A DNA stretch of 13,131 nt from the UHGV virus genome UHGV-0327824; one strand, given 5' to 3'. The notes under the pieces are model-generated. The model did no database searches, was not told the origin of the DNA, and worked only from the letters and a program-made list of their open reading frames with translations. This document shows positions 1-13,131 of this stretch, piece after piece (within the stretch, counting starts at the first letter, position 1; each line of letters starts with the position of its first letter). The position numbers were made by a program, and so were the translations under genes. The stretch comes from a virus.

Positions 1-29
1 CGCACATCTGTAACAAGAGGATTGCCGCA

Positions 30-395
30 ATGATTCTCGCCAACGACTTTCTTGAATACCTGCTCAACACAGAGCGTGATCTTGCCGTTCGCGTGCGTGA
101 ACGTTATGACATGTACCTGAAATCCCTGCCTGTACCGCAGCTCGCTGACGGAAAGATTGTTATTGATGGTCGCTACATGATTGACAGCCACGAGGGAAAT
201 TACAGGCTTTACCGCATTGAAGGCGGCACCCCGTCCGTTATTGGCATTTACCAGCGCCCATCCTCTGCGATCGTCGATGTGATTGCCGACAGCATCCGCA
301 TCACACACCACCATGCCGACACAGAAGACACTGTGCTGGAGATTCAGCGGCTGGCTGCCGTTTGCCGTGACACTCTGAATGGCATGACGAAGTAA
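30..395 (+). CDS. Hypothetical phage protein (121 aa) immediately upstream of replication gene A
   Basis: Complete ORF with RBS-like AAGAGGA about 8 nt upstream of ATG at 30; stop 7 nt before the A start; GC and codon usage like the neighbouring phage genes. No recognisable motif. Confidence 0.55.
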   Translation: MILANDFLEYLLNTERDLAVRVRERYDMYLKSLPVPQLADGKIVIDGRYMIDSHEGNYRLYRIEGGTPSVIGIYQRPSSAIVDVIADSIRITHHHADTEDTVLEIQRLAAVCRDTLNGMTK

Positions 396-401
396 ATCAG
401 T

Positions 402-3224
402 ATGACGACAGAGTACATCAGGGACTGGCAACAACCGCGCCACGCAGTAGGACGTGAAGGAACGGAGATCCCCGCACCTGAATCCGCACTTTCCTCCTGG
501 CTGGATGCCTACCGGGCAGAGAACGAGCGCCGCCAGGAAATGGCTGATGCGGCGTTCTCCGCCACGCCGCTGGGCAACCTGATTAATAAAAGCCTGGACG
601 CACAGGAAAAACAGGACAAAACAATCACACTGGCAGGAGACGCCAGAAAACAGGCACGCGGCGCGGTAGATGAGGCCATGGCCTCACTGCGCCTGCTGCC
701 GTCCTATCTGCGCGATCCGCTTATTCGCCACCTCTCCTTCCTGCGCAAAAAACAGGAAGCCGATCGTCAGAAAGGAAAAAACGCCAGGCAGGCAGAACGC
801 TATGCGCGTGGGACCCTGCGCAAAATATTCGAACGTCTGGAGCGCACCGATCACCGCTGGCTGACATCGGGTTATCGCTCCCTTGCCGGACGTGAACGCC
901 TGGACGATTTGCTTTACCTGCCGCAACTCAACAAACACCAGATACAGACGCTGGCCACCATGACGGCGGCGATGTTCAGCAGCACCTTCGAAAAACTCTG
1001 CGATGGTTTTGGCGCGACTGATGGCGAGCTGACCATGGATGTAACGCTGAAGGTGTATCAGATGCTGGCCCGCATGGCATTACATCTGCACACCATGCCG
1101 CCACATTATGACGCACTGACAACAGACAAAGACCGGAGGAACGAACCAGACACGGAGCTGCTGCCGGGCGCAATTCTTCGCCTGACCTGTGCGGAATGGT
1201 GGAAGCGCAAACTGTGGCTTTTACGTTGCGAGTGGCGGGAAGAACAACTCCGCGCCGCCTGTCTGGTTTCCAGAAAAACATCGCCCTATCTGAGCCAGGA
1301 CGCGTTAAGCGAGTTTCGCGCACAGCGCGAGAAAACACGCGATTTCCTGAAAAGTTTCATGCTGGAAAACGAAGACGGGTTCACGATTGATCTCGAGACA
1401 GTGTATTACGCGGGAGTAAGTAACCCGGTTCACCGTAAGGCAGAAATGATGGCCACCATGAAGGGGCTGGAACTTCTGGCCGAAGCCCGTGGCGACAAAG
1501 CGGTGTTTCTGACTGTCACCTGCCCGTCAAAATACCACGCCACAACAGAGAACGGTCATCCGAATCCCAAATGGAACGGGGCCACCATGCGCGACTCCAG
1601 CGATTATCTGGTTAACACGTTTTTTGCGGCGGTCCGCAAAAAACTGAACCGCGACGGCCTGCGCTGGTATGGCATCCGCACGGTGGAGCCTCACCATGAC
1701 GGCACCGTGCACTGGCATATGATGGTCTTTGCTCATCCGGAAGAAATCGACAGCATCGTGGCCATCACCCGCGATATTGCCATTCAGGAAGACCGCCACG
1801 AGCTGGGCAATGATATTACTCCGCGCTTTAAGGTGGAGTATGTCGACGGCTCAAAAGGCACACCAACCAGCTATATCGCGACCTACATCGGAAAAAACCT
1901 GGACAGCCGCGCCGTCGATGGCATCGACCCGAAAACGGGCAAGCCACGCGTTGACCACGAAACCGGAAAATCAATGGCCGAGAGCGTGGAGCGCGCCATC
2001 GGCTGGGCGCGCCTTCACCGGGTCCGTCAGTTCCAGTTCTTTGGCATCCCCTCCCGTCAGGTGTGGCGTGAACTGCGCCGCCTTGCCAGCCAGATGGCAC
2101 GCAATCCGGAAGGCCCGCAACGGCTGAAAGATGATGCAATGGATGCGGTACTCGCTGCCGCCGATGCCGGGTGTTTTGCCTCCTACATTGAAAAACAGGG
2201 TGGCGTGCTTGTTCCACGCAAGGACTACCTGATTCGCACCGCCTACGACCTCGCAGATGAGCTGAACGATTACGGCGAACAGAGCGTACAGATTTACGGG
2301 ATCTGGTCACCACTCATCGGGGAATCCTCCCGTGTGTGCACGCATCCGGATAACTGGAAGTTGGTAAGACGTAAACCAGAACCAGAAGACAACGCCCACG
2401 AAAATGGTTTTGACCTTCAGGGCGGCCCTGCCGCCCCTTGGACTCGTGGCAATAACTGTCCCCGTGTACAGGAAACGGACAACAACGGGACAGAACAGCC
2501 GGAAGAACGGCCAGCACCGTGGCCGCAGCTTCCTGACGGCGTTGACGTGAACGAATGGATGCGCTCACTGAAACGGCACGAACGCCGGGCGCTGATGCGT
2601 TCGCTGCGTGACAAACAGGCAAAAAACAGCAGTGATGGAATGCAGAGCTGGACACAGAGCCGCAAACAGCAGCGGCCTTTGCCTGATAACCACGAATTAC
2701 TCGCTAAAGAATGGCGGGAATCTGCCGAATCTCTCGGCCTGCATATCGGTGAACAGCAGATGCAGCACCTGTTACGGGGCGGCAGCCTGTACGTTGACGG
2801 CAGCATCATTGCACCGCAGGGATTTGAAATTGTACGCAAACCGGATACCCGCCCGGACAGCCGAATCACGCAGCTCTGGCAGCGCCTGAGCCGTAATCAC
2901 GGCGTAAGCAGCACGGAGATCCGCCATAACCCGGTCGCCAGCTATCTGGAACAGCTGGGGGCATCAGACCCCGAAGCCGCCGCACGTCTGGCATCCACAC
3001 TTCAGCAGGACCAGAACACCATGACCCCCCCCGTTACCGTGCTTTCTGACATGCTGCGCGCCATCCGCGACGCAGAGCACGCACAGAGAATCAGTGAAAC
3101 CACTGAACGTGCCCGCCGCAAAGCAGACCTGCTGCGGGGTGGCCTGACCAGTGGAAACAAAAAACAGACAGAAACGGGATTCACAAATCCCGTAAATGAG
3201 CAAAAAACGCGCCGCGATATATGA
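402..3224 (+). CDS. A: P2 gpA-family rolling-circle replication initiation endonuclease (940 aa)
   Basis: Translation contains a HUH-type motif (VHWHMMVF) followed by paired tyrosines (YIATYIGKN), as in P2/186 gpA. Context supports it: Ogr, D, FI, FII, E in the same window. About 180 aa longer than P2 gpA as I recall it (about 761 aa). Confidence 0.88.
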   Translation: MTTEYIRDWQQPRHAVGREGTEIPAPESALSSWLDAYRAENERRQEMADAAFSATPLGNLINKSLDAQEKQDKTITLAGDARKQARGAVDEAMASLRLLPSYLRDPLIRHLSFLRKKQEADRQKGKNARQAERYARGTLRKIFERLERTDHRWLTSGYRSLAGRERLDDLLYLPQLNKHQIQTLATMTAAMFSSTFEKLCDGFGATDGELTMDVTLKVYQMLARMALHLHTMPPHYDALTTDKDRRNEPDTELLPGAILRLTCAEWWKRKLWLLRCEWREEQLRAACLVSRKTSPYLSQDALSEFRAQREKTRDFLKSFMLENEDGFTIDLETVYYAGVSNPVHRKAEMMATMKGLELLAEARGDKAVFLTVTCPSKYHATTENGHPNPKWNGATMRDSSDYLVNTFFAAVRKKLNRDGLRWYGIRTVEPHHDGTVHWHMMVFAHPEEIDSIVAITRDIAIQEDRHELGNDITPRFKVEYVDGSKGTPTSYIATYIGKNLDSRAVDGIDPKTGKPRVDHETGKSMAESVERAIGWARLHRVRQFQFFGIPSRQVWRELRRLASQMARNPEGPQRLKDDAMDAVLAAADAGCFASYIEKQGGVLVPRKDYLIRTAYDLADELNDYGEQSVQIYGIWSPLIGESSRVCTHPDNWKLVRRKPEPEDNAHENGFDLQGGPAAPWTRGNNCPRVQETDNNGTEQPEERPAPWPQLPDGVDVNEWMRSLKRHERRALMRSLRDKQAKNSSDGMQSWTQSRKQQRPLPDNHELLAKEWRESAESLGLHIGEQQMQHLLRGGSLYVDGSIIAPQGFEIVRKPDTRPDSRITQLWQRLSRNHGVSSTEIRHNPVASYLEQLGASDPEAAARLASTLQQDQNTMTPPVTVLSDMLRAIRDAEHAQRISETTERARRKADLLRGGLTSGNKKQTETGFTNPVNEQKTRRDI
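3172..3196. promoter_or_regulatory. Palindromic site copy 1 (AAACGGGATTCACAAATCCCGTAAA), inside the 3' end of gene A
   Basis: Arms ACGGGAT / ATCCCGT are exact reverse complements with a 6 nt spacer; a near-identical copy lies 73 bp downstream. Confidence 0.45.
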
Positions 3225-3244
3225 AGCGCACACAAAACAGGCAA

Positions 3245-3269
3245 AAACGGGATTTCAGAATCCCGTAAA
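3245..3269. promoter_or_regulatory. Palindromic site copy 2 (AAACGGGATTTCAGAATCCCGTAAA), about 30 bp upstream of the ParM-like start; candidate operator/centromere
   Basis: Same 7-6-7 inverted repeat as copy 1, followed by an AT-rich -10-like stretch (TTAATTAAT) and the RBS AAGGAAAA of the ParM-like gene. Confidence 0.45.
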
Positions 3270-3300
3270 CGATTAATTAATCAACATAAGGAAAAGCGAC

Positions 3301-4260
3301 ATGAAAATTTGTATCGACGACGGCTCCACCAACATCAAGCTGGCATGGACTGAGAATGGCGAACGCCGCAACGCCATCAGCCCGAACAGCTTCAAGTCGG
3401 AATGGTCTGCGCCGTTCGGTGGCATGCAGCCCGCGAACTACATGCTTGATGGCGTGCGCTATGGTTTTGATCCGGTTAGCGATCGCTTTGTCCAGACGAC
3501 CGACACGCAATACCAGTACAGCGATGTGAATGTAATCGCCATTCATCACGCGCTGGTCAAATCAGGCATCACGCCACAGGAGGTGGATGTGGTTGTCACC
3601 CTGCCACTGAGCGAGTATTTCGACACAAACGCACAGCCGGACATGGCCAACATCAACCGCAAAAAAGCGAACGTTATGCGCCCGGTGGAGTACCAGAACG
3701 GCGAAGCATTCACTATCCGTAACGTGCGGGTTATGCCTGAATCCATTCCGGCTGGCTTTAAAGCACTGGCTGACATGAGTCCGTTTGAATCCCTGCTGAT
3801 TGTGGATTTAGGCGGAACCACGCTGGATGTGGCAAAGGTTCAGGGGCAACTGGCAGGTATCAGCCAGGTGTTTTGCGATCCACACGTAGGCGTCTCCCTG
3901 ATGGCCGGTGCCGTGCTGTCGGTGATGGCCGCTAACGGTATGCGTACCAGTCACCACATCGCCAATACCATTATCGAACATCGCCATGATGAAGCCTGGT
4001 TGCGCCAACACATCCACAATGACGCGCATTACGCCAGCCTGATGGCGGTTATTCGTGAAAAGGAAGAAACACTGAAACAACGCGTGATCCGCGCGCTGGC
4101 GGGTTTTTCGGGTTACGGGCGGGTGATGGTTGTCGGTGGCGGGGCGGAGATTGTGGCACCCGCTATCCGCGAAGCCTGCGGAGTTAATGTGACTTTCATC
4201 GCGGACGAGGTGCCACAGTTTGCTCTGGTTAATGGGCTGTACGCAATGGACAAGGAGTAA
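3301..4260 (+). CDS. parM: Actin-like plasmid segregation ATPase, ParM/StbA family (319 aa)
   Basis: N-terminus MKICIDDGSTNIKLAW matches the ParM/StbA phosphate-1 motif (R1 ParM begins MLVFIDDGSTNIKLQW from memory). Further shared blocks: ISPNSFK, YSDVNV..HHAL, RKKAN, VMPESIPAG, SLLI(V/I)DLGGTTLD, GVSL, V(M/V)V(I/G)GGGAE, LVNG(M/L)Y. RBS AAGGAAAA before the ATG. Confidence 0.85.
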   Translation: MKICIDDGSTNIKLAWTENGERRNAISPNSFKSEWSAPFGGMQPANYMLDGVRYGFDPVSDRFVQTTDTQYQYSDVNVIAIHHALVKSGITPQEVDVVVTLPLSEYFDTNAQPDMANINRKKANVMRPVEYQNGEAFTIRNVRVMPESIPAGFKALADMSPFESLLIVDLGGTTLDVAKVQGQLAGISQVFCDPHVGVSLMAGAVLSVMAANGMRTSHHIANTIIEHRHDEAWLRQHIHNDAHYASLMAVIREKEETLKQRVIRALAGFSGYGRVMVVGGGAEIVAPAIREACGVNVTFIADEVPQFALVNGLYAMDKE

Positions 4261-4264
4261 ACCA

Positions 4265-4579
4265 ATGACGACACCAACCAGACGGATAAGTTTCTATCTG
4301 AAGCCAGTCGCCGTCAATAGTGAACGGGAGGCGTGTAATTACCTCGACAGCCTGCCAGCCTCTGAACGCAGCCGCGCGCAACGCGCGGCCTTTCTGGCCG
4401 GGCTGGCACTCATAAAACGCGATCCTGCATTTGCCTATTGGTTGGCCGAATGGCCGGAAGAAGGAGCTGCGCCAGCCAAGAATAATATTCAGAGTAAATA
4501 TGCCAGCACACCTGCCACCGGAAGCAATCACAGCACTAGCGAGATAAGAAAGAACATTCAGTCATTTTTCCCAGAGTGA
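4265..4579 (+). CDS. parR: ParR/StbB-like centromere-binding adaptor (104 aa)
   Basis: Directly downstream of the ParM-like gene (4 nt gap, RBS GGAG). Resembles R1 ParR as recalled: ISFYLKP vs IAFKLNP, LDSLPASERSRAQRAAFLAGLAL vs LDSIPQGERSRLNRAALTAGLAL. Start taken at ATG 4265, not the longer in-frame ORF from 4220. Confidence 0.7.
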   Translation: MTTPTRRISFYLKPVAVNSEREACNYLDSLPASERSRAQRAAFLAGLALIKRDPAFAYWLAEWPEEGAAPAKNNIQSKYASTPATGSNHSTSEIRKNIQSFFPE

Positions 4580-4598: not shown

Positions 4599-5060
4599 AT
4601 GGCAACTATCCCCAAAAAATGGTTACAACGCAAAATTGCAGACCTTGAATCGTGTCGTGAAGACATCCCGTTTGGCCTTGATGAAAACGATCACAATATG
4701 TTAATCGCACTGAAAATCGCACTCACATCGCTGGAAGCAGAGGCAGTTATGTTCTGTATATCAGGACAAAATGTAGATTCAGAAGAACATGTATCAACCA
4801 GCAAAGCGGTTGTTGATGCCTGGGTTGAAGAATGGAATCAGGTTGACGGAAGTCCTGGCGAACCACTGTACAAAACTATGCCACTCTACTATCACGCTGC
4901 CTTGCCAGCGCCGGTAGTGCCGGAAGAAGCAACTCCGGAAAACGTAGAAATGCTCTCTGGCTATGTTTCCACGTACAAATTAACCGATAGCGAGCGCGAT
5001 ATTGCTGCCGAAATATGGAACGCCTGCCGCGCCGCTATGCTTCATGGGAAAGGAGAGTGA
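4599..5060 (+). CDS. Hypothetical acidic protein (153 aa), third gene of the parMR operon
   Basis: Strong RBS AGGAGAGGAG 5 nt before ATG 4599, 19 nt after the parR stop. Acidic composition, no motif I recognise. Noticeably more AT-rich than the flanking phage genes. Confidence 0.6.
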   Translation: MATIPKKWLQRKIADLESCREDIPFGLDENDHNMLIALKIALTSLEAEAVMFCISGQNVDSEEHVSTSKAVVDAWVEEWNQVDGSPGEPLYKTMPLYYHAALPAPVVPEEATPENVEMLSGYVSTYKLTDSERDIAAEIWNACRAAMLHGKGE

Positions 5061-5061
5061 T

Positions 5062-5325
5062 ATGGCAACTTTAACAAAAAAAGAACGGGCATGGTTGAAC
5101 GAATTACAGGACGTTCTTGATCGCTGCCCATCACCGAAAAAAATTGGTTTTTACACCATTGGCGATAAAAGCATTTACCTGTATGACCTGCGCCGCATGG
5201 ATGAAATCATGGAGGCTCTTGATAATCGTTCGTCAATGGATTGGTGTGTTGCTGTCCATGATATGAATGCAGGGTTTGATGAAAAGATTTTGTTCCCCTC
5301 ATCAGTTGAAAGCACAGCAGGATAA
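5062..5325 (+). CDS. Hypothetical protein (87 aa), translationally coupled to the preceding gene
   Basis: ATG 5062 lies 1 nt after the upstream stop (TGA 5058..5060), with GGAGAG RBS inside the upstream gene's 3' end. Intrinsic terminator follows at 5362..5385. Start is at the internal ATG, not the 5002 ORF-track start. Confidence 0.6.
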   Translation: MATLTKKERAWLNELQDVLDRCPSPKKIGFYTIGDKSIYLYDLRRMDEIMEALDNRSSMDWCVAVHDMNAGFDEKILFPSSVESTAG

Positions 5326-5361
5326 GGACCCAGCAAATATACACAACCTATAAAACACTAA

Positions 5362-5385
5362 AGCGCCTCAGGGGCGCTTTTTGTT
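5362..5385 (+). terminator. Rho-independent terminator closing the parM-parR-orf-orf operon
   Basis: Stem AGCGCC / GGCGCT with a 5 nt loop, then TTTTTGTTT. Confidence 0.7.
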
Positions 5386-5412
5386 TGCACAAAAGTGCAC
5401 AAATTTGCACAA
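5386..5412. repeat. Three direct repeats of TGCACAA at exact 10 bp periodicity
   Basis: TGCACAAAAG / TGCACAAATT / TGCACAATTT directly after the terminator; the middle copy forms the palindrome GTGCAC. Confidence 0.5.
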
Positions 5413-5784
5413 TTTTTTTGAACGACTTTTTACCCTTCCGGCCCGCATGGCGGCTGGATCCGTCAAGGATCCGTGCGTGCACAAAAAAACGCGTTTTTTC
5501 TGCGCGCAGGTGACGGGGGAACAGCCCGCGTTTCAGGGGGTAAATAGCATTCCCTGAACGATGTCGCAGAGACACAACAGAATGGCCATATTTCTCACGC
5601 TGAGCATGAAAAAGGCGTGAGGGCTTTTGATTTGATGGGGTGAAAGGTAAGGCCGTCAAAATCGCACTGAGGCAGCGAGAACATGCAGTCAACGCGGTGG
5701 AATTGCGTAAGAGTCTGACCGTCGATGGTGGCGATAAACTGGAAGGCGTCGTGAAATTATCTGATTGATACAGGAGCTGGAGAG

Positions 5785-5811
5785 CCGGGGCATAAATTTT
5801 TTATGCCCCGG
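5785..5811. promoter_or_regulatory. 27 bp perfect palindrome (CCGGGGCATAAA-TTT-TTTATGCCCCGG), about 100 bp upstream of the 174 aa orphan gene
   Basis: 12 bp arms are exact reverse complements around a 3 nt centre. No T-run follows on either strand, so it reads as an operator-like site rather than a terminator. A weak sigma70-like promoter (TTGCCG-17-CAAAAT) lies between it and the gene. Confidence 0.4.
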
Positions 5812-5911
5812 CGAAGCAGCAGACAAGCGAAGCGCGTCAGCGATACGGCACCTTGCCGACCATACTTCATAAGTGCAAAATACGAGCAAAGAAATCAATG
5901 GAGGCTGTCTT

Positions 5912-6436
5912 ATGGTCATTAATTACAAGCAGTTAAGAGAAAAACGGGAGCAGGTAAAGGAGAGCTTTCGCCGCAATGAAGATCTGACCCCGCTTGTACG
6001 CCTTGCCCAGGGCATTGTTGATGCTTATGAAATCTCGCTGGAGCTGCCATCACAGACCTGGACAGATAGCGACGGTAATCGCCAGCATTACGTTTCATGC
6101 GGACTGGAAGCAGCCGAAGGATTTCGCAGAATGCCTTTATCCCAGATCCCTGCCGCTACCCCCAAAGCACGGGGCAGCAATGATGAGCGAAAACTGACTT
6201 TTAGTATTGAAACGGTGGTTGACGACACACCTGGCGAAGTCGCGTTCGTGCACACGCCTGTTTCGATCGCAATGTATAACGATGAAATACAGGTTCGCGT
6301 TAATAATAATATCGTGCCACTTAAAGAAGGTAATTCACCCTACACCACCGTTTGTGAAGCCATTCAATATTACGTTCTCTCTGAAATTGATAATCTCAAG
6401 CCTGACGGCACCCAGAAAATGGTTCAACTCTGGTAA
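5912..6436 (+). CDS. Hypothetical protein (174 aa), orphan cargo gene
   Basis: ATG 5912 preceded by GGAGG at 7 nt spacing; the ORF-track start at 5873 is a GTG without an RBS. Ends at TAA 6434..6436, followed directly by a hairpin terminator. No recognisable motif; AT-rich relative to the phage genes. Confidence 0.6.
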   Translation: MVINYKQLREKREQVKESFRRNEDLTPLVRLAQGIVDAYEISLELPSQTWTDSDGNRQHYVSCGLEAAEGFRRMPLSQIPAATPKARGSNDERKLTFSIETVVDDTPGEVAFVHTPVSIAMYNDEIQVRVNNNIVPLKEGNSPYTTVCEAIQYYVLSEIDNLKPDGTQKMVQLW

Positions 6437-6441
6437 AAAGG

Positions 6442-6467
6442 ACAGCCCCATCACGGGGCTGTTTTTT
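6442..6467. terminator. Bidirectional intrinsic terminator between the convergent 174 aa gene and the tape measure remnant
   Basis: Stem ACAGCCCC / GGGGCTGT with a 5 nt loop; T6 run on the plus strand, and a weaker TCCTTTTT tail when read on the minus strand. Confidence 0.65.
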
Positions 6468-7939
6468 CATCAAGAAGAGCATAAGAGTTAAAACGGATCA
6501 CCTCTTCGCCAAGCCAGTCATTGATGTGCTTCATAGCCTCCATGACGGGCATCAGCTCGTTAATTGCGTAAACCGTCACCCGCCGCATCAACGAGTGCCA
6601 TAAACGATGTGAAAGCCTCTTCCCCGGCGATGTCCTTAAAGAAGGATACCCGGTCAACTTCCCCGTATTTGCGGGTAGCTTTATAAAGGTCAGCCAGCAG
6701 ATCTTCCATCGGGCGCATTTTGCCCCCGGCATCCGAGACGGACACGCCCAGCTCTTTCAGAGCTTCTGCCGCCGCCTTTGGCGGTGATGCCAGACGAGCC
6801 AGGCTGGCACGCATTGCCGTCCCGGCATCACTCCCTCTGATGCCCATATTCGCCAGCACGCCCGCCATCGCTGCGGCCTGCTCCAGCGATATCCCCAGCT
6901 TACCCGCCACCGGACCGGCATATTTCATGGTTTCGCCCAGTGCGCGAAGGTCAGTGTTGGTACGGGTAAACGCTGCGGTGAGTGTGTCTCCGACCCGGTC
7001 CATCTGGTCAGCAGAAAGGCCGAACTGCGTCAGGATATTTGAGCCAATATCTGCCGTCTCGCCGAGATCCATACCGCCAGCCGTTGCCATGCTCAGTACG
7101 CCGGGAAGCGCAGCCTGAATGGCCTGCGGAGTGAAGCCTGCCATTGCAAGAAATGCCTGCCCACTGGCGGCATCGCCTGCGGTGAACTGCGTTTCAGAGC
7201 CAAGTTTTAACGCCTGCTCACGCAGCGCCTTAAACTGCGGGCTGTTTTTGTCGATTCGCGTCAGTGCCTGAACGCGGGACATCTCTTTCCCGAACCCGAT
7301 CGCAGGCTGCAAAAAACGCCCGGCAGCATAGCCGCCAGCCGCTGCCGCACCAATTGCCAGCGCACCACCTGTTTTCAGTTTTCCTGCTGTTTCCTGCGCG
7401 CGCGAATACCGCTCACGCGCACGCGTTACACGCGCAAGCGCCTGCCGTTCGCGTTCAAGCTGATTGTTGTACTGTTCGGTGCGTCTGATGGCCTGCTGGA
7501 TGGTGTTATCGCTGCCTGTCAGGGAAATGCCGTGGCGTTTCAGCTCTCCGCCAAGCTCCCGCATTTTCTGAATTTCCCGTGTGCGCGATTCATTCAGGCG
7601 TTCAAGCCGGGTGCTTAACTGCTGCATCAGCTTTTGTTGTTTTTCGCTGAGCACTGTACCCGTGCGTTGTAACTGATTAAGGGCGTTAAGCTGGCGTCGT
7701 GCTTTCACGATGCCAGCATCCGCTTTACTGACAGCGTCACGGGCGCGCTCAAATGAACGCGCCTGACGCTCGAGATTTTTGATCGCCCCCTGCGTTCGCT
7801 GGATGGAGTCACCAAACTGCCCCATCAGGCGGCGGGCGTTTTCGGCAGGCCGGGTCAGCCTGTCAACGGCGCTGAAAGCGACCCGGATATCAAGAGTCTT
7901 CATTGTCTGCATTCCCGCTGCGAAGTGCCGCCCGCTCAC
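6451..7939 (-). pseudogene. T: Truncated/frameshifted tail tape measure gene (P2 gpT-like): 459 aa N-terminal ORF plus an out-of-frame 93 aa tail
   Basis: Starts overlapping the end of E', as in P2. N-terminal region is coiled-coil-like with long Ala/Gly-rich stretches, typical of tape measure proteins. ORF 6560..7939 stops at 459 aa against about 815 aa recalled for P2 gpT; a different frame continues to 6451 into the terminator. No U gene follows. Start codon ambiguous (GTG at 7939 or ATG at 7912/7903). Confidence 0.65.
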
Positions 7940-8419
7940 GCCAGCTAACCACTTCGCCGGGCGTCATCATGAAGATTTCAGCGGGCGACCAGTTAAAAAT
8001 AACGGCAATATCTGCCACAAAGTCTTCTATGTGCTCAAAGCACACAACCGTGATCAGGCTTCCGTCGCCTGTTCGTTCTTCCCGCCAGAGTCCGCACCGC
8101 TCAAAAAATTTACGGCAACCACACATAACTGAATAAAGTCACGGGATGCCATTTTTTTGATCGTCACTTCATCCAGTCGCGGTGATGTCACGCGTGACAG
8201 CAGCGTAAACATGGATTCCGCTTTCAGATTCAGCACATCAGACAACGACAAATCTCGCAGAGATCCAGCCTGCTCAATAGCTCCGGTGATCTCCACATAC
8301 GTGATTTTTTCGCCGCCTCGCTCAATTGGTTGGGTAAGTTTTACGCCACGCTCACTGGTTTCTTTCACAGTGTCAGTAACTACCGTGTTTTCGGTATCGA
8401 TGTTTTTCGTCTCTTTCAT
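7890..8419 (-). CDS. E': gpE+E' fusion made by programmed -1 ribosomal frameshift at TTTTTTG (plus-strand 8102..8108)
   Basis: Zero frame reads ..VAVNFLSGADSGGKNEQATEA-stop. The -1 frame from the slippery site reads ..KFFERCGLWREERTGDGS...NADNEDS-stop, ending at 7890 and overlapping the T start. Verified codon by codon on the minus strand; same arrangement as P2 E/E' and lambda G/GT. Confidence 0.7.
8054..8419 (-). CDS. E: Tail assembly chaperone gpE-like (121 aa)
   Basis: Sits between FII and T as in P2. RBS AAAGGAG before ATG (8417..8419 complement). Contains the slippery heptamer TTTTTTG near its 3' end. Confidence 0.8.
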   Translation of the reverse strand: MKETKNIDTENTVVTDTVKETSERGVKLTQPIERGGEKITYVEITGAIEQAGSLRDLSLSDVLNLKAESMFTLLSRVTSPRLDEVTIKKMASRDFIQLCVVAVNFLSGADSGGKNEQATEA

Positions 8420-8473
8420 CAGGAAACTCCTTTCAGTCAGAGGCGACGCACTGCGCCGCCTGCATATTACTTA

Positions 8474-8986
8474 TCAGCCAAGCCCAAGCGCGGAACGGAT
8501 ACGGTCAGGCACAATGTCCTTGCCGTCCTTCCGGTAAATGAAGTTCAGCAGGTCAATCTCCCACAACGGGCGATCGTTAACACTCAGCTTGTAGTAGGTG
8601 TTTTTAATGGCGTAAGTGTGTGATGTGGCTTCGCCCTGTTTGGCTTCCCCCATATCAATTTCCGTCACACGTCCGCGCATTTCGACTTCATACAGGTCGC
8701 TTTCTGCATCGGTGTAGTATTCACCCGCAAAACGCAGCAGCGTGCCGTCAATCGTACCGCCATACTTAAGGAACAGCTCACGAACTGCGCCCCCCATGAC
8801 AAAGCTCGCATCAAGCGCGGAGTCGTCCAGACCGAGATCAATACTTACCGCACCCATCATGCCACCACCCCGGTAGCTGTCGGTTTTGCGCGTCAGTTTA
8901 GGCAGAGTGACGGACGTCACCTTACCCACTTCGTTTTCACCATCCACAAACAGCGTAAAAAAGCGAAGATGTTTTGGTACAGCCAT
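8474..8986 (-). CDS. FII: Tail tube protein, P2 gpFII-like (170 aa)
   Basis: Size matches P2 FII (about 172 aa). Start ATG overlaps the FI stop by 1 nt (ATGA). Lies between the sheath gene and E. Confidence 0.88.
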   Translation of the reverse strand: MAVPKHLRFFTLFVDGENEVGKVTSVTLPKLTRKTDSYRGGGMMGAVSIDLGLDDSALDASFVMGGAVRELFLKYGGTIDGTLLRFAGEYYTDAESDLYEVEMRGRVTEIDMGEAKQGEATSHTYAIKNTYYKLSVNDRPLWEIDLLNFIYRKDGKDIVPDRIRSALGLG

Positions 8987-10170
8987 CAGGCACCTCCCAG
9001 CACCGCAAATGCGGGACCAAAGAATTCATCAGTAAACGACTGGTAAAGCTCCATGTCTTCCAGCGGGGGAACTGGCGTATATTTGTAGCGAATACGCACA
9101 CGTCCCTGACGTAAACCCGTGGTGCTGTTATCCACCACGTCATACCAGCACTCCGCGCCAATCAGTTTCCCGGCAGTAACCAGTGAATCCAGTTTTGCCC
9201 TGATGGCACTGATAACATCCTTCACGTTCGCAGGCGTCAGTGGACTGTCGATGGTTTCAAACTGCGCTTCCGCAATTGAATCAGCCAGCACCTGTGCGGT
9301 TCGGGTATACACCTCAAAGATGTAGGCGTTCGTTTCCGGTGTGCGGTTGCCCCAGAAGCGGAACCCGTTACGACGAATAATGGTCGTGATTTCTTTGTTG
9401 TTAAGGCTGTTGGCATCGCTGTCTTCGGCCTGCAACGACCAGAACACATGCCGGGACATCCCCAGCACATTTTTAACCGGAACGTTGGACAGTGATTTGT
9501 GCCAGCCCTGCTCATGGTCAATGTACGCACGAAGGCCGCACGCATAAGCAGGCGCGGGGAACGTTTCGTTTTTGCCACTTTTCGGGTTGTAGGCGATGAA
9601 GTCCGGCCATAAGAGCATCACCTCACGTTCGTTGAATTTCTGGCGGTAGGTAATTGCCTCTGCCATCGTGTTACAGCCATGACATGAGGCATACACAAAC
9701 GCGCGCAGTTTACCCGCAATCACGCACAGGGATTTTGTCACCGCCTCCGTGTCCAGCTCCGGCGCGGCCAGAATACGCGGACGGTATCCGATGCTTTCAT
9801 CCTGCTCTGCAACAAGCAGCGCATACATCCCCGTATAGCTGCCGTCAGATTCAGAACCACCGATAACCAGTTGATCCTGCGTCTTTCCGTTTTCTTCTTT
9901 GTGTTCAGCCACGCGAACGACGATCACCTTTGTGCTCACCTGGTCTGCGATGGCCTTAAGCGCACGATAAAGCGTCCCCGTTGTCCCGCATTTTCCCAGC
10001 ACGTCATTGACGCGGGTCAGCAGTGTGGGCTTGTTCAGCGGGAACAGCTTCGCGTCCGCATCATCCGCCGTTGCCACGATACCGATAACGCTGGAATCAA
10101 CATCGTTAATCGCTGTTACCAGGTCGGTACTTTCCGTAACACGGGCACCATGAAAACGAGTTTCACTCAT
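8986..10170 (-). CDS. FI: Contractile tail sheath protein, P2 gpFI-like (394 aa)
   Basis: Size matches P2 FI (about 396 aa). First gene of the FI-FII-E-T block, coupled to FII. Confidence 0.88.
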   Translation of the reverse strand: MSETRFHGARVTESTDLVTAINDVDSSVIGIVATADDADAKLFPLNKPTLLTRVNDVLGKCGTTGTLYRALKAIADQVSTKVIVVRVAEHKEENGKTQDQLVIGGSESDGSYTGMYALLVAEQDESIGYRPRILAAPELDTEAVTKSLCVIAGKLRAFVYASCHGCNTMAEAITYRQKFNEREVMLLWPDFIAYNPKSGKNETFPAPAYACGLRAYIDHEQGWHKSLSNVPVKNVLGMSRHVFWSLQAEDSDANSLNNKEITTIIRRNGFRFWGNRTPETNAYIFEVYTRTAQVLADSIAEAQFETIDSPLTPANVKDVISAIRAKLDSLVTAGKLIGAECWYDVVDNSTTGLRQGRVRIRYKYTPVPPLEDMELYQSFTDEFFGPAFAVLGGA

Positions 10171-10327
10171 AGCTTCAGCCCCTTGTATCCGTTAAATGAT
10201 TCGGCAACAATCATCACCCACCACGCGCGTAATCTCACCCCTGCGCCGTTCTCCCGCCACGGCGACAACAAAAAGCAGTAACCCCCTCCGCACGCACATG
10301 CGACCATGCCGCACAGGGAGGGAGCAG

Positions 10328-11437
10328 ATGACCGACACCACCATGCAATTGCTCAGTCAGGGCACAGACCCCGTAAAAATGCCGGATTTTGATATTCTCG
10401 CGGAGGGTAAAACGCTGTCAGGCGTGGCAGAGCGCCTGATGAGCCTGTCACTGACCGACAACCGGGGATTTGACGCGGACCAGCTCACCATCACGCTGGA
10501 TGATGCGGATGGTCAGTTGCAGCTACCGCCACGGGGCGCGCGCCTGACGGTTCTCATTGGCTGGAAAGGAGAACCGCTGACAGAAAAAGGCACTTACATT
10601 GTTGATGAAATCGCTCACGAAGGACCGCCGGACAGGCTGACTGTTTCAGCCAGAAGCGCAGATTTTCGGGATGAATTTAACGTTAAACGTGAGGTGTCCT
10701 GGCATGATGTGACCGTTGAGCGTGTGGTATCCGCCATCGCTCATCGGTATGGTCTGAAACCGCAAATCAGCGAAATGCTGATGGATATCGAAATCGACCA
10801 CGCCGACCAGACCGAAGAAAGCGACATGTCCTTCCTTACGCGCATGGCGGAAATGCTGGGCGCAATCACCACGGTAAAAAGCGGCAATCTGTTATTCATC
10901 ATGCCAGGTGGTGGCGTGAACGCACAGGGCCAGCCGTTGCCCTCGTTCGCCATTACACGCAGCAGCGGCGATCGCCATCAGTTCCGCATTGCTGACCGCG
11001 AGGCGTATACGGGGGTACGCGCCTACTGGCTTGATCTTAATTACGGGAAAAAGAAAAAAGTCAGCGTGAAACGCCGTAAACCGCCAAAACCCAAAAAGGA
11101 GAAAAGCAGCAGCCGTGAAGGTGATTATATGGAAGGCGCGGAAGGCAATGTGTTTGTGTTACGCAAGACTTATCAGAACGAGCAGGCAGCAAGACGCGCA
11201 GCGGCGGCAAAGTGGCAGCAACTACAACGCGGAGCCGCATCATTCTCCATCACGCTGGCGCGTGGACGTGCAGAACTCTACCCCGAAATGCATGGCACGG
11301 TAACAGGATTTAAAAGCGAGATTGATAATAAGGACTGGATCATTGCAAAAGCCGAGCACACCATTGATAACAGCGGTTTTACCACGCAGCTTGAGCTTGA
11401 GGCAAAAATCCCGGAATGGATAGCGGAAACAGAGTGA
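10328..11437 (+). CDS. D: P2 gpD-like tail/late control protein D (369 aa)
   Basis: Start chosen at ATG 10328 with RBS GGAGGGAG 3..10 nt upstream, not the longer ORF from 10196. Size close to P2 gpD (about 387 aa). Immediately followed by ogr, as in P2. Confidence 0.85.
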   Translation: MTDTTMQLLSQGTDPVKMPDFDILAEGKTLSGVAERLMSLSLTDNRGFDADQLTITLDDADGQLQLPPRGARLTVLIGWKGEPLTEKGTYIVDEIAHEGPPDRLTVSARSADFRDEFNVKREVSWHDVTVERVVSAIAHRYGLKPQISEMLMDIEIDHADQTEESDMSFLTRMAEMLGAITTVKSGNLLFIMPGGGVNAQGQPLPSFAITRSSGDRHQFRIADREAYTGVRAYWLDLNYGKKKKVSVKRRKPPKPKKEKSSSREGDYMEGAEGNVFVLRKTYQNEQAARRAAAAKWQQLQRGAASFSITLARGRAELYPEMHGTVTGFKSEIDNKDWIIAKAEHTIDNSGFTTQLELEAKIPEWIAETE

Positions 11438-11477
11438 GCAACTTAGAATAGGCAGCACCACGTTAAGGGAGGTCGCT

Positions 11478-11738
11478 ATGTTCCGTTGTCCGCTTTGTGG
11501 CGCATCTGCCCGTATCCGCACCAGTCGTCCGGAAAATGATTCAAACACCGTGCGGCAAAAGTATTACCAGTGTAACAATCTGGAATGCGGCGTATGCTTC
11601 TCAACACTGGAAGCTTTCCATAAATTCACATCAAAACACGCCTCCGGCGTTCACTCTTCAGAAGGTATCCCGTGGCATGAGCTGCCAGCTTCACACAGGG
11701 GAAACAATCAGATGAGTTTGCCTTTATCTCAGAATTAA
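11478..11738 (+). CDS. ogr: Ogr/Delta-family zinc-finger late transcription activator (86 aa)
   Basis: N-terminus MFRCPLCGASARIRTSR...YYQCNNLECGVCF matches P2 Ogr (MFHCPLCQHAAHARTSR...YHQCQNVNCSATF) with the C-x2-C...C-x4-C zinc finger. RBS AAGGGAGG before the ATG. Confidence 0.88.
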   Translation: MFRCPLCGASARIRTSRPENDSNTVRQKYYQCNNLECGVCFSTLEAFHKFTSKHASGVHSSEGIPWHELPASHRGNNQMSLPLSQN

Positions 11739-11928
11739 CAGGCAGAATTGCCGGAGTAACAAAAAAGCGATAGATTACGCGCGGGTGCCTTTCGGCTGAT
11801 GGTCGGAGGGAATACCCGAAGGCCAGATGTGGAAAGGCCCCGGAAAACATTTCTGTTTAACCGAGGCCCTGACCATCTAACCTTAGCAAGTGATAGGTTA
11901 GCGCCTCCCTGAAAAAGGAGCAAGCGCT

Positions 11929-12069
11929 ATGTCGCAAAAATCGCTTATGGCCATCACGTTCTGCGTGACGGCAATCCTCATCATCTGGATGCTGCACGGT
12001 TCGCTGTGTGAAATACGGATGAGCTTCTGGGGAGCGGAGTTTGCGGCGTTCTTACAGTGTAAGCAGTAA
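11929..12069 (+). CDS. hok: Hok/Gef-family type I toxin (46 aa membrane peptide)
   Basis: MSQKSLMAITFCVTAILIIWMLHGSLCEIRMSFWGAEFAAFLQCKQ: hydrophobic TM segment, then SLCEIR and AAF as in Hok (..[27 protein letters not shown]). RBS AAGGAG 9 nt upstream. About 165 nt structured leader with a small upstream ORF (11799..11912); a stable hairpin follows the stop (12079..12100) and a terminator at 12159..12190. Below the ORF track's size cut-off. Confidence 0.7.
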   Translation: MSQKSLMAITFCVTAILIIWMLHGSLCEIRMSFWGAEFAAFLQCKQ

Positions 12070-12158
12070 GGAAACCGCGACGGGGGAGCAATCCCCCGTC
12101 AATCGGTTGCCAGGGTAAGGTCGATAAGGCACCCTATCTCACAGACATGAACAACAAA

Positions 12159-12190
12159 CCCGCAGCGTAAGAACTGCGGGTTTTCTTTTT
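12159..12190. terminator. Bidirectional intrinsic terminator between the hok-like locus (+) and the secreted-protein gene (-)
   Basis: Stem CCCGCAG / CTGCGGG with an 8 nt loop; TTTTCTTTTT on the plus strand and a T-rich tail (TTTGTTGTT) on the minus strand. Confidence 0.65.
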
Positions 12191-12258
12191 GGAACTATCA
12201 CTAGCTAGTGTACCGTTAACGGCACATAATGCTCGCACAACAAACCTGTTAAAAGAGA

Positions 12259-12540
12259 TTACTCAGCATTCTCCTGCTTCCATTGCCGGATCATTTCATC
12301 GGTAACATCACCCTCATAACATACCACGTCATACCCTCCATTACGGCTATATGCACTGCGTCCACCACATCTACTACCATTCCTTGCATGATTATAAGGA
12401 CACGCACAATTGCCTGGATAAGATTCAATGGATTCTTTAATTATTTCTTTTTTGATCTGAGCATCAGACTTTCCTGTTGCTGCATATCCGCTAAAAGATA
12501 CTAAACAAAGGCAGATTGCCATTAATAAACCACATCGCAT
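12259..12540 (-). CDS. Small secreted cysteine-containing protein of unknown function (93 aa precursor), AT-rich gene
   Basis: Start taken at the internal Met giving a signal peptide (MRCGLLMAICLCLVSFSGYAA | TGKSD). Mature part about 72 aa with four Cys (NCACPYN..RCGG..VCYEG). Markedly AT-rich against its surroundings. The ORF-track N-terminal extension to 12654 has no RBS. Confidence 0.55.
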   Translation of the reverse strand: MRCGLLMAICLCLVSFSGYAATGKSDAQIKKEIIKESIESYPGNCACPYNHARNGSRCGGRSAYSRNGGYDVVCYEGDVTDEMIRQWKQENAE

Positions 12541-12769
12541 ACCGATACACTCTATTACTAACCAATCATAGCCCACATCATAAAATCGAGATGAGGAGTA
12601 CAATACCTTTAACAAGAAGGTGTCATAACGATAATATGTCGTGCAATTCATCAAAAAAAAGATCTATATCAAAGAGATAGAACTCTTATCAGTGCTTCAG
12701 ACATCGGCATTCGAGGCAGCAGAAAAACAGTAAATCTGACGAATTTGCCTTTTCCCAAGATGTTGTCAG

Positions 12770-12926
12770 ATTAAAAAGATAGATTAGCGCAGGTACCTGT
12801 TGGTGGATTGCAGGAGGAAAAATGAAGTCGAGTGGAAAAATCCCAGAAAAATTTTTGTTTAACAGAGGTCCTGGCTCACTATGCGAAATACGGAGGAGCT
12901 GCAGAAGAATTCTGCTTCATCCTTAG
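12770..12926 (+). pseudogene. Deletion remnant of a second hok-type locus (leader fused to the hok C-terminal coding part)
   Basis: The leader is about 75-80% identical to the first locus's leader by eye (GATAGATTA.., ..TTTCTGTTTAACCGAGGCCCTG vs ..TTTTTGTTTAACAGAGGTCCTG), then jumps to sequence matching the hok 3' coding part (TCACTATGCGAAATACGGAGGAGCTG vs TCGCTGTGTGAAATACGGATGAGCTT). The TM-coding part is missing and the reading frame differs. Confidence 0.5.
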
Positions 12927-13012
12927 AGTTTAAACAGCACGTGCACTACCATTGTTTCTGCATATCGCCACACCATCGCCACTCAACCGCCATTGCACAA
13001 AATACAAATACG

Positions 13013-13034
13013 AAAAAACCACCCGAAGGTGGTT
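13013..13034 (-). terminator. Intrinsic terminator downstream of the tRNA gene (minus-strand transcript)
   Basis: Minus-strand reading: stem ACCACC / GGTGGT with loop TTCG, then TTTTTT; about 45 nt after the tRNA CCA end. Confidence 0.7.
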
Positions 13035-13078
13035 TCACGACACTGCTTATTGCTTTGATTTTATTCTTATCTTTCCCA

Positions 13079-13131
13079 TGGTACCCGGAGCGGGACTTGA
13101 ACCCGCACAGCGCGAACGCCGAGGGATTTTA
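13079..13131 (-). tRNA. leuZ: 3' portion of tRNA-Leu(UAA), leuZ-like; gene continues beyond the window end
   Basis: Reverse complement reads ..TAAAATCCCTCGGCGTTCGCGCTGTGCGGGTTCAAGTCCCGCTCCGGGTACCA: anticodon loop with UAA, a long class II variable arm, T-arm GGTTCAAGTCC, acceptor 3' strand and encoded CCA. Only about 53 nt are in the window. Confidence 0.85.

Follow-up and report, generated by a model that had tools for sequence, protein, structure and literature searches.

The 13,131-nt window, i.e. the whole stretch of DNA that was analysed, is with a probability of about 0.92 the right-hand 13 kb of an 18.6-kb P88-like prophage remnant (Xuanwuvirus, Peduoviridae) at leuZ of E. coli, in which a natively inverted tail gene block is combined with one deletion of ~18.1 kb. 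Judged by gene content, the element is an ordinary defective (cryptic) prophage, and heads, baseplates and complete tails would be beyond its gene set.

Gene content and divergent FI/D layout

Searches with Pfam and PHROGs returned the gene identities and strands given in the original prediction, which had placed FI-FII-E-T on the minus strand and D-ogr on the plus strand, diverging from a spacer of 157 bp. The tail module had been taken to begin at 6451, where the sequence is in fact the 3' end of portal gene Q.

Features of the window (positions in nt; strand given where applicable)
Feature	Position	Strand	Evidence and remarks
Replication endonuclease A	402-3224	+	Pfam Phage_GPA (precomputed match)
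ParM	3301-4260	+	Pfam StbA_N/ParM_N (precomputed match)
ParR-like protein	4265-4579	+	Plasmid_stab_B
Portal gene Q, 3' remnant (last 124 nt, 40 codons + stop), left side of deletion	6451-6574	-	blastn to P88 and vB_EcoM-569R5; PHROG 68
T', truncated tape-measure gene, 447 aa	6560-7903	-	Pfam PhageMin_Tail; PHROG 28; exact protein on Logan contigs
Deletion junction, 4-bp microhomology AACC common to Q and T sides	6571-6574		Window compared with Q of P88/569R5 and T of P88/strain 1439
E' frame of tail chaperone E+E'	7890-8126	-	Pfam Phage_P2_GpE; 100% identical to P88 gp46; frame also delimited as 7890-8045
E, tail assembly chaperone	8054-8419	-	PHROG 103; 98.3% identical to P88 gp47, full length
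FII, tail tube	8474-8986	-	Pfam Phage_tube, 7.5e-47; 100% identical to P88
FI, tail sheath	8986-10170	-	Pfam Phage_sheath_1 and sheath C-terminal domain; PHROG 23; 98% identical to P88, full length
Divergent FI/D spacer, 157 bp, putative bidirectional late-promoter region	10171-10327		One base different from P88 spacer
Candidate Ogr-type late-activator site TGTTGT-N12-AGAAC	10248-10270	-	Found in FI-D and P-O spacers
D, tail/baseplate hub protein, 369 aa	10328-11437	+	Pfam Phage_GPD; PHROG 52; 98.6% identical to P88
ogr, zinc-finger late-gene activator, 86 aa	11478-11738	+	Pfam Ogr_Delta, 5e-14
hok/gef-family toxin gene, moron at prophage right end	11929-12069	+	Pfam HOK_GEF; PHROG 251
attR, right copy of 137-bp att repeat	12997-13131		Overlaps 3' part of tRNA-Leu(taa) leuZ; cut by window end

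All 52 P88 proteins were compared with the window by tblastn. E', E, FII, FI and D proved to be full length at 98-100% identity and free of frameshifts, and A and ParM were 96-98% identical to their counterparts. Reading of sequence and frames located an intact -1 slippery heptamer TTTTTTG of E/E' at 8102-8108. D starts as in the RefSeq annotation of relatives, and ogr is 97.7% identical to an unannotated P88 copy at 34476-34733. Replication (A), partition (ParM/ParR-like), sheath and tube (FI, FII) and the late activator are thus kept, as had been proposed. None of the 22 P88 genes from P (large terminase) through U was found in the window, Q was represented by its C-terminal end only, and the P88 proteins detected no holin, endolysin or LysB-like gene there. 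T matched residues 1-444 of 935, at 99.8% identity. Genes essential for virion production are among the 22 lost morphogenesis and lysis genes, and the element is no complete Xuanwuvirus genome. These results bear out the view of a defective, truncated P2-like prophage in which U is absent, T is cut to about half and head, baseplate, fibre and lysis genes are missing. For the ORFs of the cargo region, which lies between par and Q, neither Pfam nor PADLOC returned a match; Rfam at gathering threshold gave none, and no Sok-type RNA was recognised beside hok.

In P2, FI-FII-E-T-U-D-ogr are colinear on one strand, D and ogr following U on the strand that carries FI, and the contrast with the window is real. 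The original prediction had regarded the tail module as inverted relative to D-ogr in this very element, with deletions following and the divergence itself as a mark of decay. However, P88, which forms plaques with a burst of ~65 and has a contractile tail (PMC5285337), and Chuche carry U-T-E'-E-FII-FI on the minus strand and D (with ogr) on the plus strand. The same divergent arrangement and 157-bp spacer occur in the intact phages PhiSM, PhiR44_2 and P884B11, of which PhiSM is an active phage (PMC6456863) and colinear with the window at the nucleotide level. Among relatives in IMG/VR, 80 of 80 loci are divergent with the 157-bp spacer, most of them with a T of 935 aa and U. The layout recurs in phiT5282H and Kp4877-2, which belong to two further Peduoviridae genera (Novemvirus and Reginaelenavirus, respectively), whereas the colinear order of P2 is also that of KP12 and of a Ralstonia Arsyunavirus. 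Moreover, the window is colinear with P88 from 6573 to 12190 (97.4% identity), and FI/D shows no breakpoint. An inversion within this element is hence extremely improbable: on these alignments the FI-FII-E/E'-T-U block is natively inverted relative to P2 in the P88 lineage, and FI and D diverge from the spacer for this reason. Of the proposed decay by inversion and deletion, only the deletion stands. The divergent layout, named beforehand together with a short tape measure as what intact relatives should show if the rearrangement model was wrong, is indeed native, whereas the short tape measure is not, because native-layout relatives carry U and the 935-aa T wherever the contig extends that far.

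With FI-U inverted, D-ogr of the P88 clade needs transcription of its own. The element ACAACAAAAA is invariant across the FI-D spacers of three genera. P-O and FI-D spacers share three 9-mers, in one orientation only, and the motif TGTTGT-N12-AGAAC, which was defined post hoc from these same two sites, has only two copies in the entire P88 genome, one in each of these divergent spacers; the same holds for Chuche. It thus seems that the FI-D spacer has one central activator site, common only to the P/O spacer. The canonical P2 dyad TGT-N12-ACA matched three times in the window, with 3.4 matches expected by chance, and a sigma-70 scan of 6200-12300 returned four promoter-like matches, with 4.2 expected; in neither case was there a match in the FI-D spacer. 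By analogy with the P/O region, we infer that the FI-D spacer may be a bidirectional, Ogr-dependent late-promoter region. The comparison points to a pF promoter region that became a late promoter for both directions through the ancestral inversion and would also drive D-ogr. For the expression of D-ogr apart from the F operon, the putative site common to both divergent late spacers offers a small lead.

The Q/T deletion at leuZ

In blastn, window 6476-6574 corresponds to P88 11379-11477 at the 3' end of Q, and 6573-12190 to P88 29578-35188 on the same strand. The Q match to vB_EcoM-569R5 runs up to 24794, and the matches in P88 and 569R5 both lie inside annotated portal genes. The remnant covers positions 306-342 of 344 of the PHROG 68 portal profile, and a terminator scan of 6200-12300 placed a hairpin at its end (6442-6462). 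The blastn segments of the two sides overlap in the AACC tetranucleotide. What is lacking relative to P88 amounts to ~18.1 kb (P88 ~11478-29577), with the last 124 nt of Q joined to codon ~444 of 935 of T; in T', ~443 T codons are followed by four codons read out of frame and a stop, which the Q remnant contributes.

One deletion brought the Q 3' end up against the interior of T, which lies on the minus strand as Q does. Lost with it were the larger part of Q, the genes P, O, N, M, L, X, R, S, V, W, J, I, H, G and U, the lysis genes, the invertible fibre segment and, at the C-terminal side of T, 53% of its length (the distal 491 codons). The event was probably illegitimate and mediated by the microhomology at AACC. 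By comparison with P88, this deletion is the only lesion and accounts for every difference.

The surrounding locus (L009) shows what is expected of a cryptic prophage, i.e. att direct repeats at a tRNA gene and an integrase (333 aa). The 137-bp repeat lies at 4014-4150 and 22596-22732 of L009, 18,582 bp apart, and tRNA-Leu at 22678-22764; the remnant is bordered by host genes yecA/tyrP/ftnA at its left end and by leuZ at its right. Independent deletions are found at the leuZ site in O157 (IS3 and IS30) and in Eco_23-3571 (ParM to T), and D is lost there in O157 and in strain 1439. In E. coli, a series of P88-like prophages has thus eroded independently at this site, which illustrates recurrent prophage decay. 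No observation was made that spoke against the deletion model.

Two further explanations had to be weighed, namely that the join is spurious and that the gene set is kept by selection. At least 20 Logan samples (sequencing runs) contained the T' protein in exact form and a 7.7-kb contig of 100% identity, the NCBI E. coli assembly GCA_020265065.1 differs from the window by one mismatch in 13,131 nt, and all copies of the deletion allele found were identical. A chimeric or collapsed Q/T join masking an intact prophage would fit the facts that every supporting assembly (Logan and the third-party NCBI assembly) is short-read and that the junction was not found in 5,426 complete E. coli genomes; exact junction strings had no match in GTDB species representatives (two scans) or JGI metagenome contigs either. 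However, independent assemblies of different runs yielded the identical junction and contig, the two sides share only 4 bp and hence offer no repeat to collapse on, and the element lies unbroken within a contig of 150 kb, where att repeats and host genes border it. An artefact has therefore next to no probability: the Q/T junction is real, and its copies in many samples are a clone. This clonality also bears on selective domestication, which the original prediction had offered as an alternative to decay and according to which the host retains sheath, tube, chaperones, D and ogr because they serve it as a contractile-injection module or tailocin, or because they complement another prophage. The full-length, frameshift-free state of FI, FII, E, E' (including the slippery site), D and ogr speaks in its favor, as does the presence of the allele in at least 20 sequenced samples. 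Yet identical copies reflect a clone rather than selection, and other strains at the locus lose different parts, e.g. D. In the retained genes, identity is 98-100% to a working phage and, in DNA, 99.6% to a near-intact prophage at the same locus, so that their integrity follows from recency of the deletion, unselected. The dN/dS ratio would be uninformative here, since the deletion-allele copies are identical and divergence from intact relatives is older than the deletion. In addition, the baseplate genes V, W, J and I, the fibre and tail completion genes, X, R, S, U and the lysis cassette are missing, and none of these lies in the flanks. Without baseplate, spike, fibres, U, R, S and X, and with T cut at ~444/935, the element would be unable to build a tail, and going by the genes present a tailocin is impossible. 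We consider domestication highly unlikely and retain the reading as a defective prophage with one recent deletion.

Possible residual mobility

Besides int and hok, the remnant retains A with its origin, the immunity/derepression region, ParM/ParR-like genes and ogr. For this reason, and by analogy with prophage Sp13 of O157, it may still be able to excise and replicate. A role as helper-dependent hitch-hiker, which upon induction or superinfection by a Xuanwuvirus would excise, replicate, trans-activate late genes of the helper via Ogr and be packaged as Sp13 is, appears rather unlikely. Its basis is the gene set just named together with a conserved non-coding block (5386-5844) that abuts Q in intact relatives, is retained and represents a candidate packaging region. 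Furthermore, 18.6 kb is close to half of the P88 genome, and a dimer would fill a P88 head. The P2 cos GGCGAGGCGGGGAAAGCAC was sought, allowing as many as 5 mismatches, in the window as well as in P88, 569R5 and Chuche; the matches were at chance level only, and so were those from local alignment of the P2 cos region to window 5300-6460. No satellite genes (Sid/Psu capsid-size redirection, own primase) were detected by Pfam on tail-region and cargo ORFs, PHROGs on tail-region ORFs, PADLOC on cargo ORFs or precomputed Pfam matches for the rest of the remnant; the only replication protein among these scans is of the P2 A type.

Comparison with known systems

R-type tailocins such as the P2-derived R-pyocins resemble the element in having P2-type sheath, tube, chaperones and D but no head genes. 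They retain the full baseplate, fibres, a complete tape measure and the lysis cassette, none of which the element possesses.

P2 (Peduovirus P2, NC_001895) has homologous FI, FII, E/E' with the TTTTTTG frameshift, T, D and Ogr, at 37-49% amino-acid identity. It likewise uses an Ogr-type activator for its late genes, with one central activator site in the divergent P/O promoters. It differs in that FI-FII-E-T-U-D-ogr form a single F operon, whereas the FI-U block is inverted in the P88 clade, and its cos sequence and TGT-N12-ACA dyad are not recognisable in the element. P2 is thus an unsafe gene-order template across Peduoviridae, given that Xuanwuvirus, Novemvirus and Reginaelenavirus carry the inverted block, and a divergent FI/D junction should not be scored as prophage decay. 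Beyond correct annotation, the importance of this is small.

Sp13 (CP-933T), a defective P2-like prophage of E. coli O157:H7, is of the same phage type and sits at the same integration site, next to leuZ-cysT-glyW/pgsA. It is likewise a deletion remnant, in which int, A and ParM survive together with the early region and the FI-T tail block, and experiments have shown that it excises, replicates (~30-fold amplification on mitomycin C) and is found packaged without head genes of its own (PMC2669165). Its lesions are independent, comprising an IS3-associated deletion from par to the fibre-assembly gene, a full-length but frameshifted T, a D cut by IS30 and loss of ogr, with U present; in the element, by contrast, T is halved and U lost, while D and ogr are intact.

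P88 (Xuanwuvirus P88, NC_026014), Chuche, PhiR44_2 and the Citrobacter phage PhiSM are 95-97% identical in nucleotide sequence over the retained parts; for P88, identity is 96.4% over 1-4317, in addition to the value for the tail region given above. P88 has the 18.1 kb that the element lacks, Q through U plus the distal 491 T codons; the par-to-Q cargo is different, and for the ParR-like protein identity is as low as 52%. The group shares order and strands of T-E'-E-FII-FI / D-ogr-hok, the 157-bp spacer and the A-ParM replication/partition module with the element, which by identity, gene order and spacer belongs to Xuanwuvirus, U and distal T having been lost through the deletion.

The divergent FI and D genes

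In the original prediction, FI (sheath), FII (tube), E (tail chaperone) and T (tape measure) were placed on the minus strand, diverging across a 157-bp spacer from D and ogr (late-gene activator) on the plus strand. ORF listing, Pfam and PHROGs confirmed these gene calls, and in P2 the order FI-FII-E-T-U-D-ogr lies on a single strand, so that the original observation holds in full. The spacer comprises positions 10171-10327, exactly 157 bp. Read from its most upstream start, 10196, the D ORF would encode 413 aa and lie only 25 bp from FI, but this start was rejected: homologues, RefSeq annotations and the ribosome-binding site GGGAGGGAG favour 10328. The -1 frameshift signal TTTTTTG of E/E' (8102-8108) is intact and the frames are right.

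Features of the window
Feature	Position	Strand	Remarks
Replication endonuclease A	402-3224		
ParM	3301-4260		
ParR-like protein	4265-4579		Plasmid_stab_B
Cargo ORF	4599-5060		153 aa; between par genes and Q remnant
Cargo ORF	5062-5325		87 aa; between par genes and Q remnant
Cargo ORF	5912-6436		174 aa; between par genes and Q remnant
T' (truncated tape measure)	6560-7903	minus	447 aa; Pfam PhageMin_Tail
E' frame	7890-8045	minus	Pfam Phage_P2_GpE
E	8054-8419	minus	ORF listing, Pfam, PHROGs
FII (tube)	8474-8986	minus	Pfam Phage_tube, 7.5e-47
FI (sheath)	8986-10170	minus	ORF listing, Pfam, PHROGs
Candidate Ogr-type site	10248-10270	minus	motif match, TGTTGT-N12-AGAAC
D	10328-11437	plus	Pfam Phage_GPD
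ogr	11478-11738	plus	Pfam Ogr_Delta
hok/gef toxin gene	11929-12069	plus	

The explanation offered for this layout, a rearrangement by inversion, did not hold, since the layout is native to the lineage. In a Megablast search of phage records, window 6573-12190 aligned colinearly with Escherichia phage P88 (Xuanwuvirus, Peduoviridae; 97.4% identity) and also with Chuche, PhiR44_2, P884B11 and Citrobacter phage PhiSM. According to annotation and tblastn mapping, the minus strand of P88 and Chuche encodes U, T, E', E, FII and FI, and D and ogr come next on the plus strand. Phage P88 can be induced and is plaque-forming, with a burst of ~65 and a contractile tail of ~137 nm (PMC5285337), and PhiSM has been described as a fully functional temperate phage (PMC6456863). 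In IMG/VR, 80 loci were compared whose D protein shares at least 99% identity with that of the window; FI and D diverge from a 157-bp spacer in every one of them, and wherever the contig is long enough these loci also possess a U gene and a T of 935 aa. Intact relatives hence have the divergent FI / D-ogr arrangement, but not the short tape measure. Divergence was also found in two phages with less similar D proteins, phiT5282H of Enterobacter (Novemvirus; 77% identity) and Kp4877-2 of Klebsiella (Reginaelenavirus; 70%), while a colinear FI to D order is present in P2, Klebsiella phage KP12 and a Ralstonia Arsyunavirus. The layout of this clade is accounted for by one ancestral event in which the FI-U block was inverted with respect to P2; this event did not take place in the UHGV-0327824 element itself.

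The junction between Q and T

When all 52 P88 proteins were used as tblastn queries against the window, the 22 genes spanning P (large terminase) to U all went unmatched. Of the portal gene Q only the C-terminal end was detectable and T was matched over residues 1-444 of 935 (99.8%), while E', E, FII, FI and D were full length and 98-100% identical. The predicted loss of U, of about half of T and of the capsid, baseplate, fibre and lysis genes was thus borne out. By blastn against P88 and vB_EcoM-569R5, the window up to 6574 corresponds to P88 11379-11477, i.e. the 3' end of the minus-strand gene Q, and from 6573 on to P88 29578 onward, within T and also on the minus strand; the AACC at 6571-6574 is common to both sides. 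The Q remnant represents the last 124 nt of the gene, its portal C-terminus being confirmed by PHROG 68, and T' is composed of ~443 T codons followed by four out-of-frame codons and a stop within this remnant. Judged from these alignments, the lesion is a simple deletion of ~18.1 kb whose 4-bp microhomology is characteristic of illegitimate recombination.

Database searches show this junction to be genuine, clonal and private. Nine Logan contigs encode the exact 447-aa T' protein, and window 5286-13042 is matched at 100% identity by a 7,757-bp Logan contig present in "20 or more" samples. The NCBI E. coli assembly GCA_020265065.1, reached via the exact A protein, carries the window on a 150-kb contig with one mismatch in 13,131 nt. 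None of the 5,426 complete E. coli genomes contains the junction, nor was it found in GTDB species representatives or JGI metagenome contigs. In GCA_020265065.1, 137-bp direct repeats (att) are located 18,582 bp apart, the right one overlapping the tRNA-Leu(taa) gene leuZ; the left side of the element holds an intact integrase and early region, beyond which follow the host genes yecA, tyrP and ftnA. As the element is bounded by att repeats and host genes, the missing morphogenetic genes, proposed to be sought in the flanks, are not next door.

The three cargo ORFs (4599-6436, ~2 kb) yielded no Pfam or PADLOC match. They occupy the slot in which P2 carries its old/tin accessory genes, and the content of this slot varies among P88, Chuche, 569R5 and E. 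coli strain 1439. Window 4714-5328 shares 99% identity with a segment of the Ea22 region in unrelated phages, e.g. vB_EcoS-689R5 (Megablast). The ParR-like protein shares only 52% identity with its P88 counterpart, whereas the adjoining ParM shares 98%, which points to mosaic exchange within the partition locus. Its partition genes have led to P88 being flagged as a potential phage-plasmid (PMC7969092).

Non-coding candidates

The FI-D spacer contains a candidate activator site. In P2, the divergent P and O promoters have one activator-binding region halfway between them. In P88, the 154-bp P-O and the 157-bp FI-D spacers have three 9-mers in common in one relative orientation, while in the opposite orientation nothing longer than 7 nt is shared. 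The sequence ACAACAAAAA is invariant across the FI-D spacers of three genera. The composite motif TGTTGT-N12-AGAAC, defined post hoc from the two sites already seen, has exactly two matches in the 35.8-kb P88 genome, one per spacer, and likewise in Chuche. The centre of the site is ~90 bp away from the FI and ~68 bp from the D start codon; the corresponding distances for P and O in P88 amount to 73 and 82 bp, those in P2 to 79 and 95 bp. The FI-D spacer lacks the canonical TGT-N12-ACA dyad. We infer that TGTTGT-N12-AGAAC may be a single Ogr-type site serving both directions, a lead rather than a result. The ancestral inversion would have placed the pF control region beside D, rendering it bidirectional.

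The conserved block 5386-5844 adjoins the portal gene in P88 and Chuche, but is parted from Q by a 630-bp insertion (5845-6475) in the window and in 569R5. It begins with three TGCACAA repeats in 27 nt, followed ~75 nt further downstream by a fourth copy, and it includes the palindrome GGATCC-N7-GGATCC. Small ORFs annotated here in P88 show lower conservation at the protein level (81-87%) than at the DNA level (93%), suggesting that the block is non-coding. It could represent a packaging (cos) region or a partition site; cos was not located when P2 cos was searched in the window, P88, 569R5 and Chuche and the block was inspected.

In the region around hok (11739-12260), Rfam at gathering threshold detected no Sok-type antisense RNA, nor any RNA family elsewhere in the window. 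Downstream of hok, the near-perfect palindrome TGTACCGTTAACGGCACA (12209-12226) fits the P2 activator dyad TGT-N12-ACA, a pattern matched in the window at chance rate. The palindrome closely follows a bidirectional terminator-like hairpin (12156-12183), and here P88 homology stops (12190) and homology to the O157 flank starts (12208).

Prophage decay at leuZ

The surviving tail genes might be regarded as a domesticated set or tailocin, since FI, FII, E, D and ogr are intact. However, baseplate, spike, fibres, tail-completion proteins, U, half of T and the lysis cassette are missing by tblastn, and what remains is unable to assemble or release a contractile tail. The intact genes share 98-100% identity with their counterparts in a functional phage and are what a recent deletion would leave, and all copies of the deletion allele found are identical. 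There is hence no evidence for the selective domestication that had been considered. The element represents a new allele of a familiar type of object, the defective P88-like prophage inserted at leuZ.

In Sp13 / CP-933T, the defective P2-like prophage of O157:H7, the part between par and the fibre-assembly gene is lost beside an IS3 fragment, T is frameshifted, IS30 cuts D and ogr is gone. Strain Eco_23-3571 has a different deletion joining ParM to T. Strain 1439 carries a near-complete prophage, 99.6% identical to the window across the tail region, with D disrupted, fibre genes disrupted or truncated and a longer T (1005 aa). O157 180-PT54, Eco_23-3571 and strain 1439 thus represent three mutually different decay states of one prophage type, reached independently and all at leuZ, a series that reflects ordinary, recurrent prophage erosion.

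Sp13 excises and amplifies ~30-fold after mitomycin C treatment (Asadulghani et al., PMC2669165), and it is found in DNase-resistant particles although it lacks head genes (PMC2669165). As its early, replication and partition genes are the same as those kept by the UHGV-0327824 element, residual excision and replication of the latter are plausible. Conceivably, although this is improbable, the 18.6-kb remnant might act as a replicating hitch-hiker that depends on a helper, a behaviour that Sp13 also seems to show.
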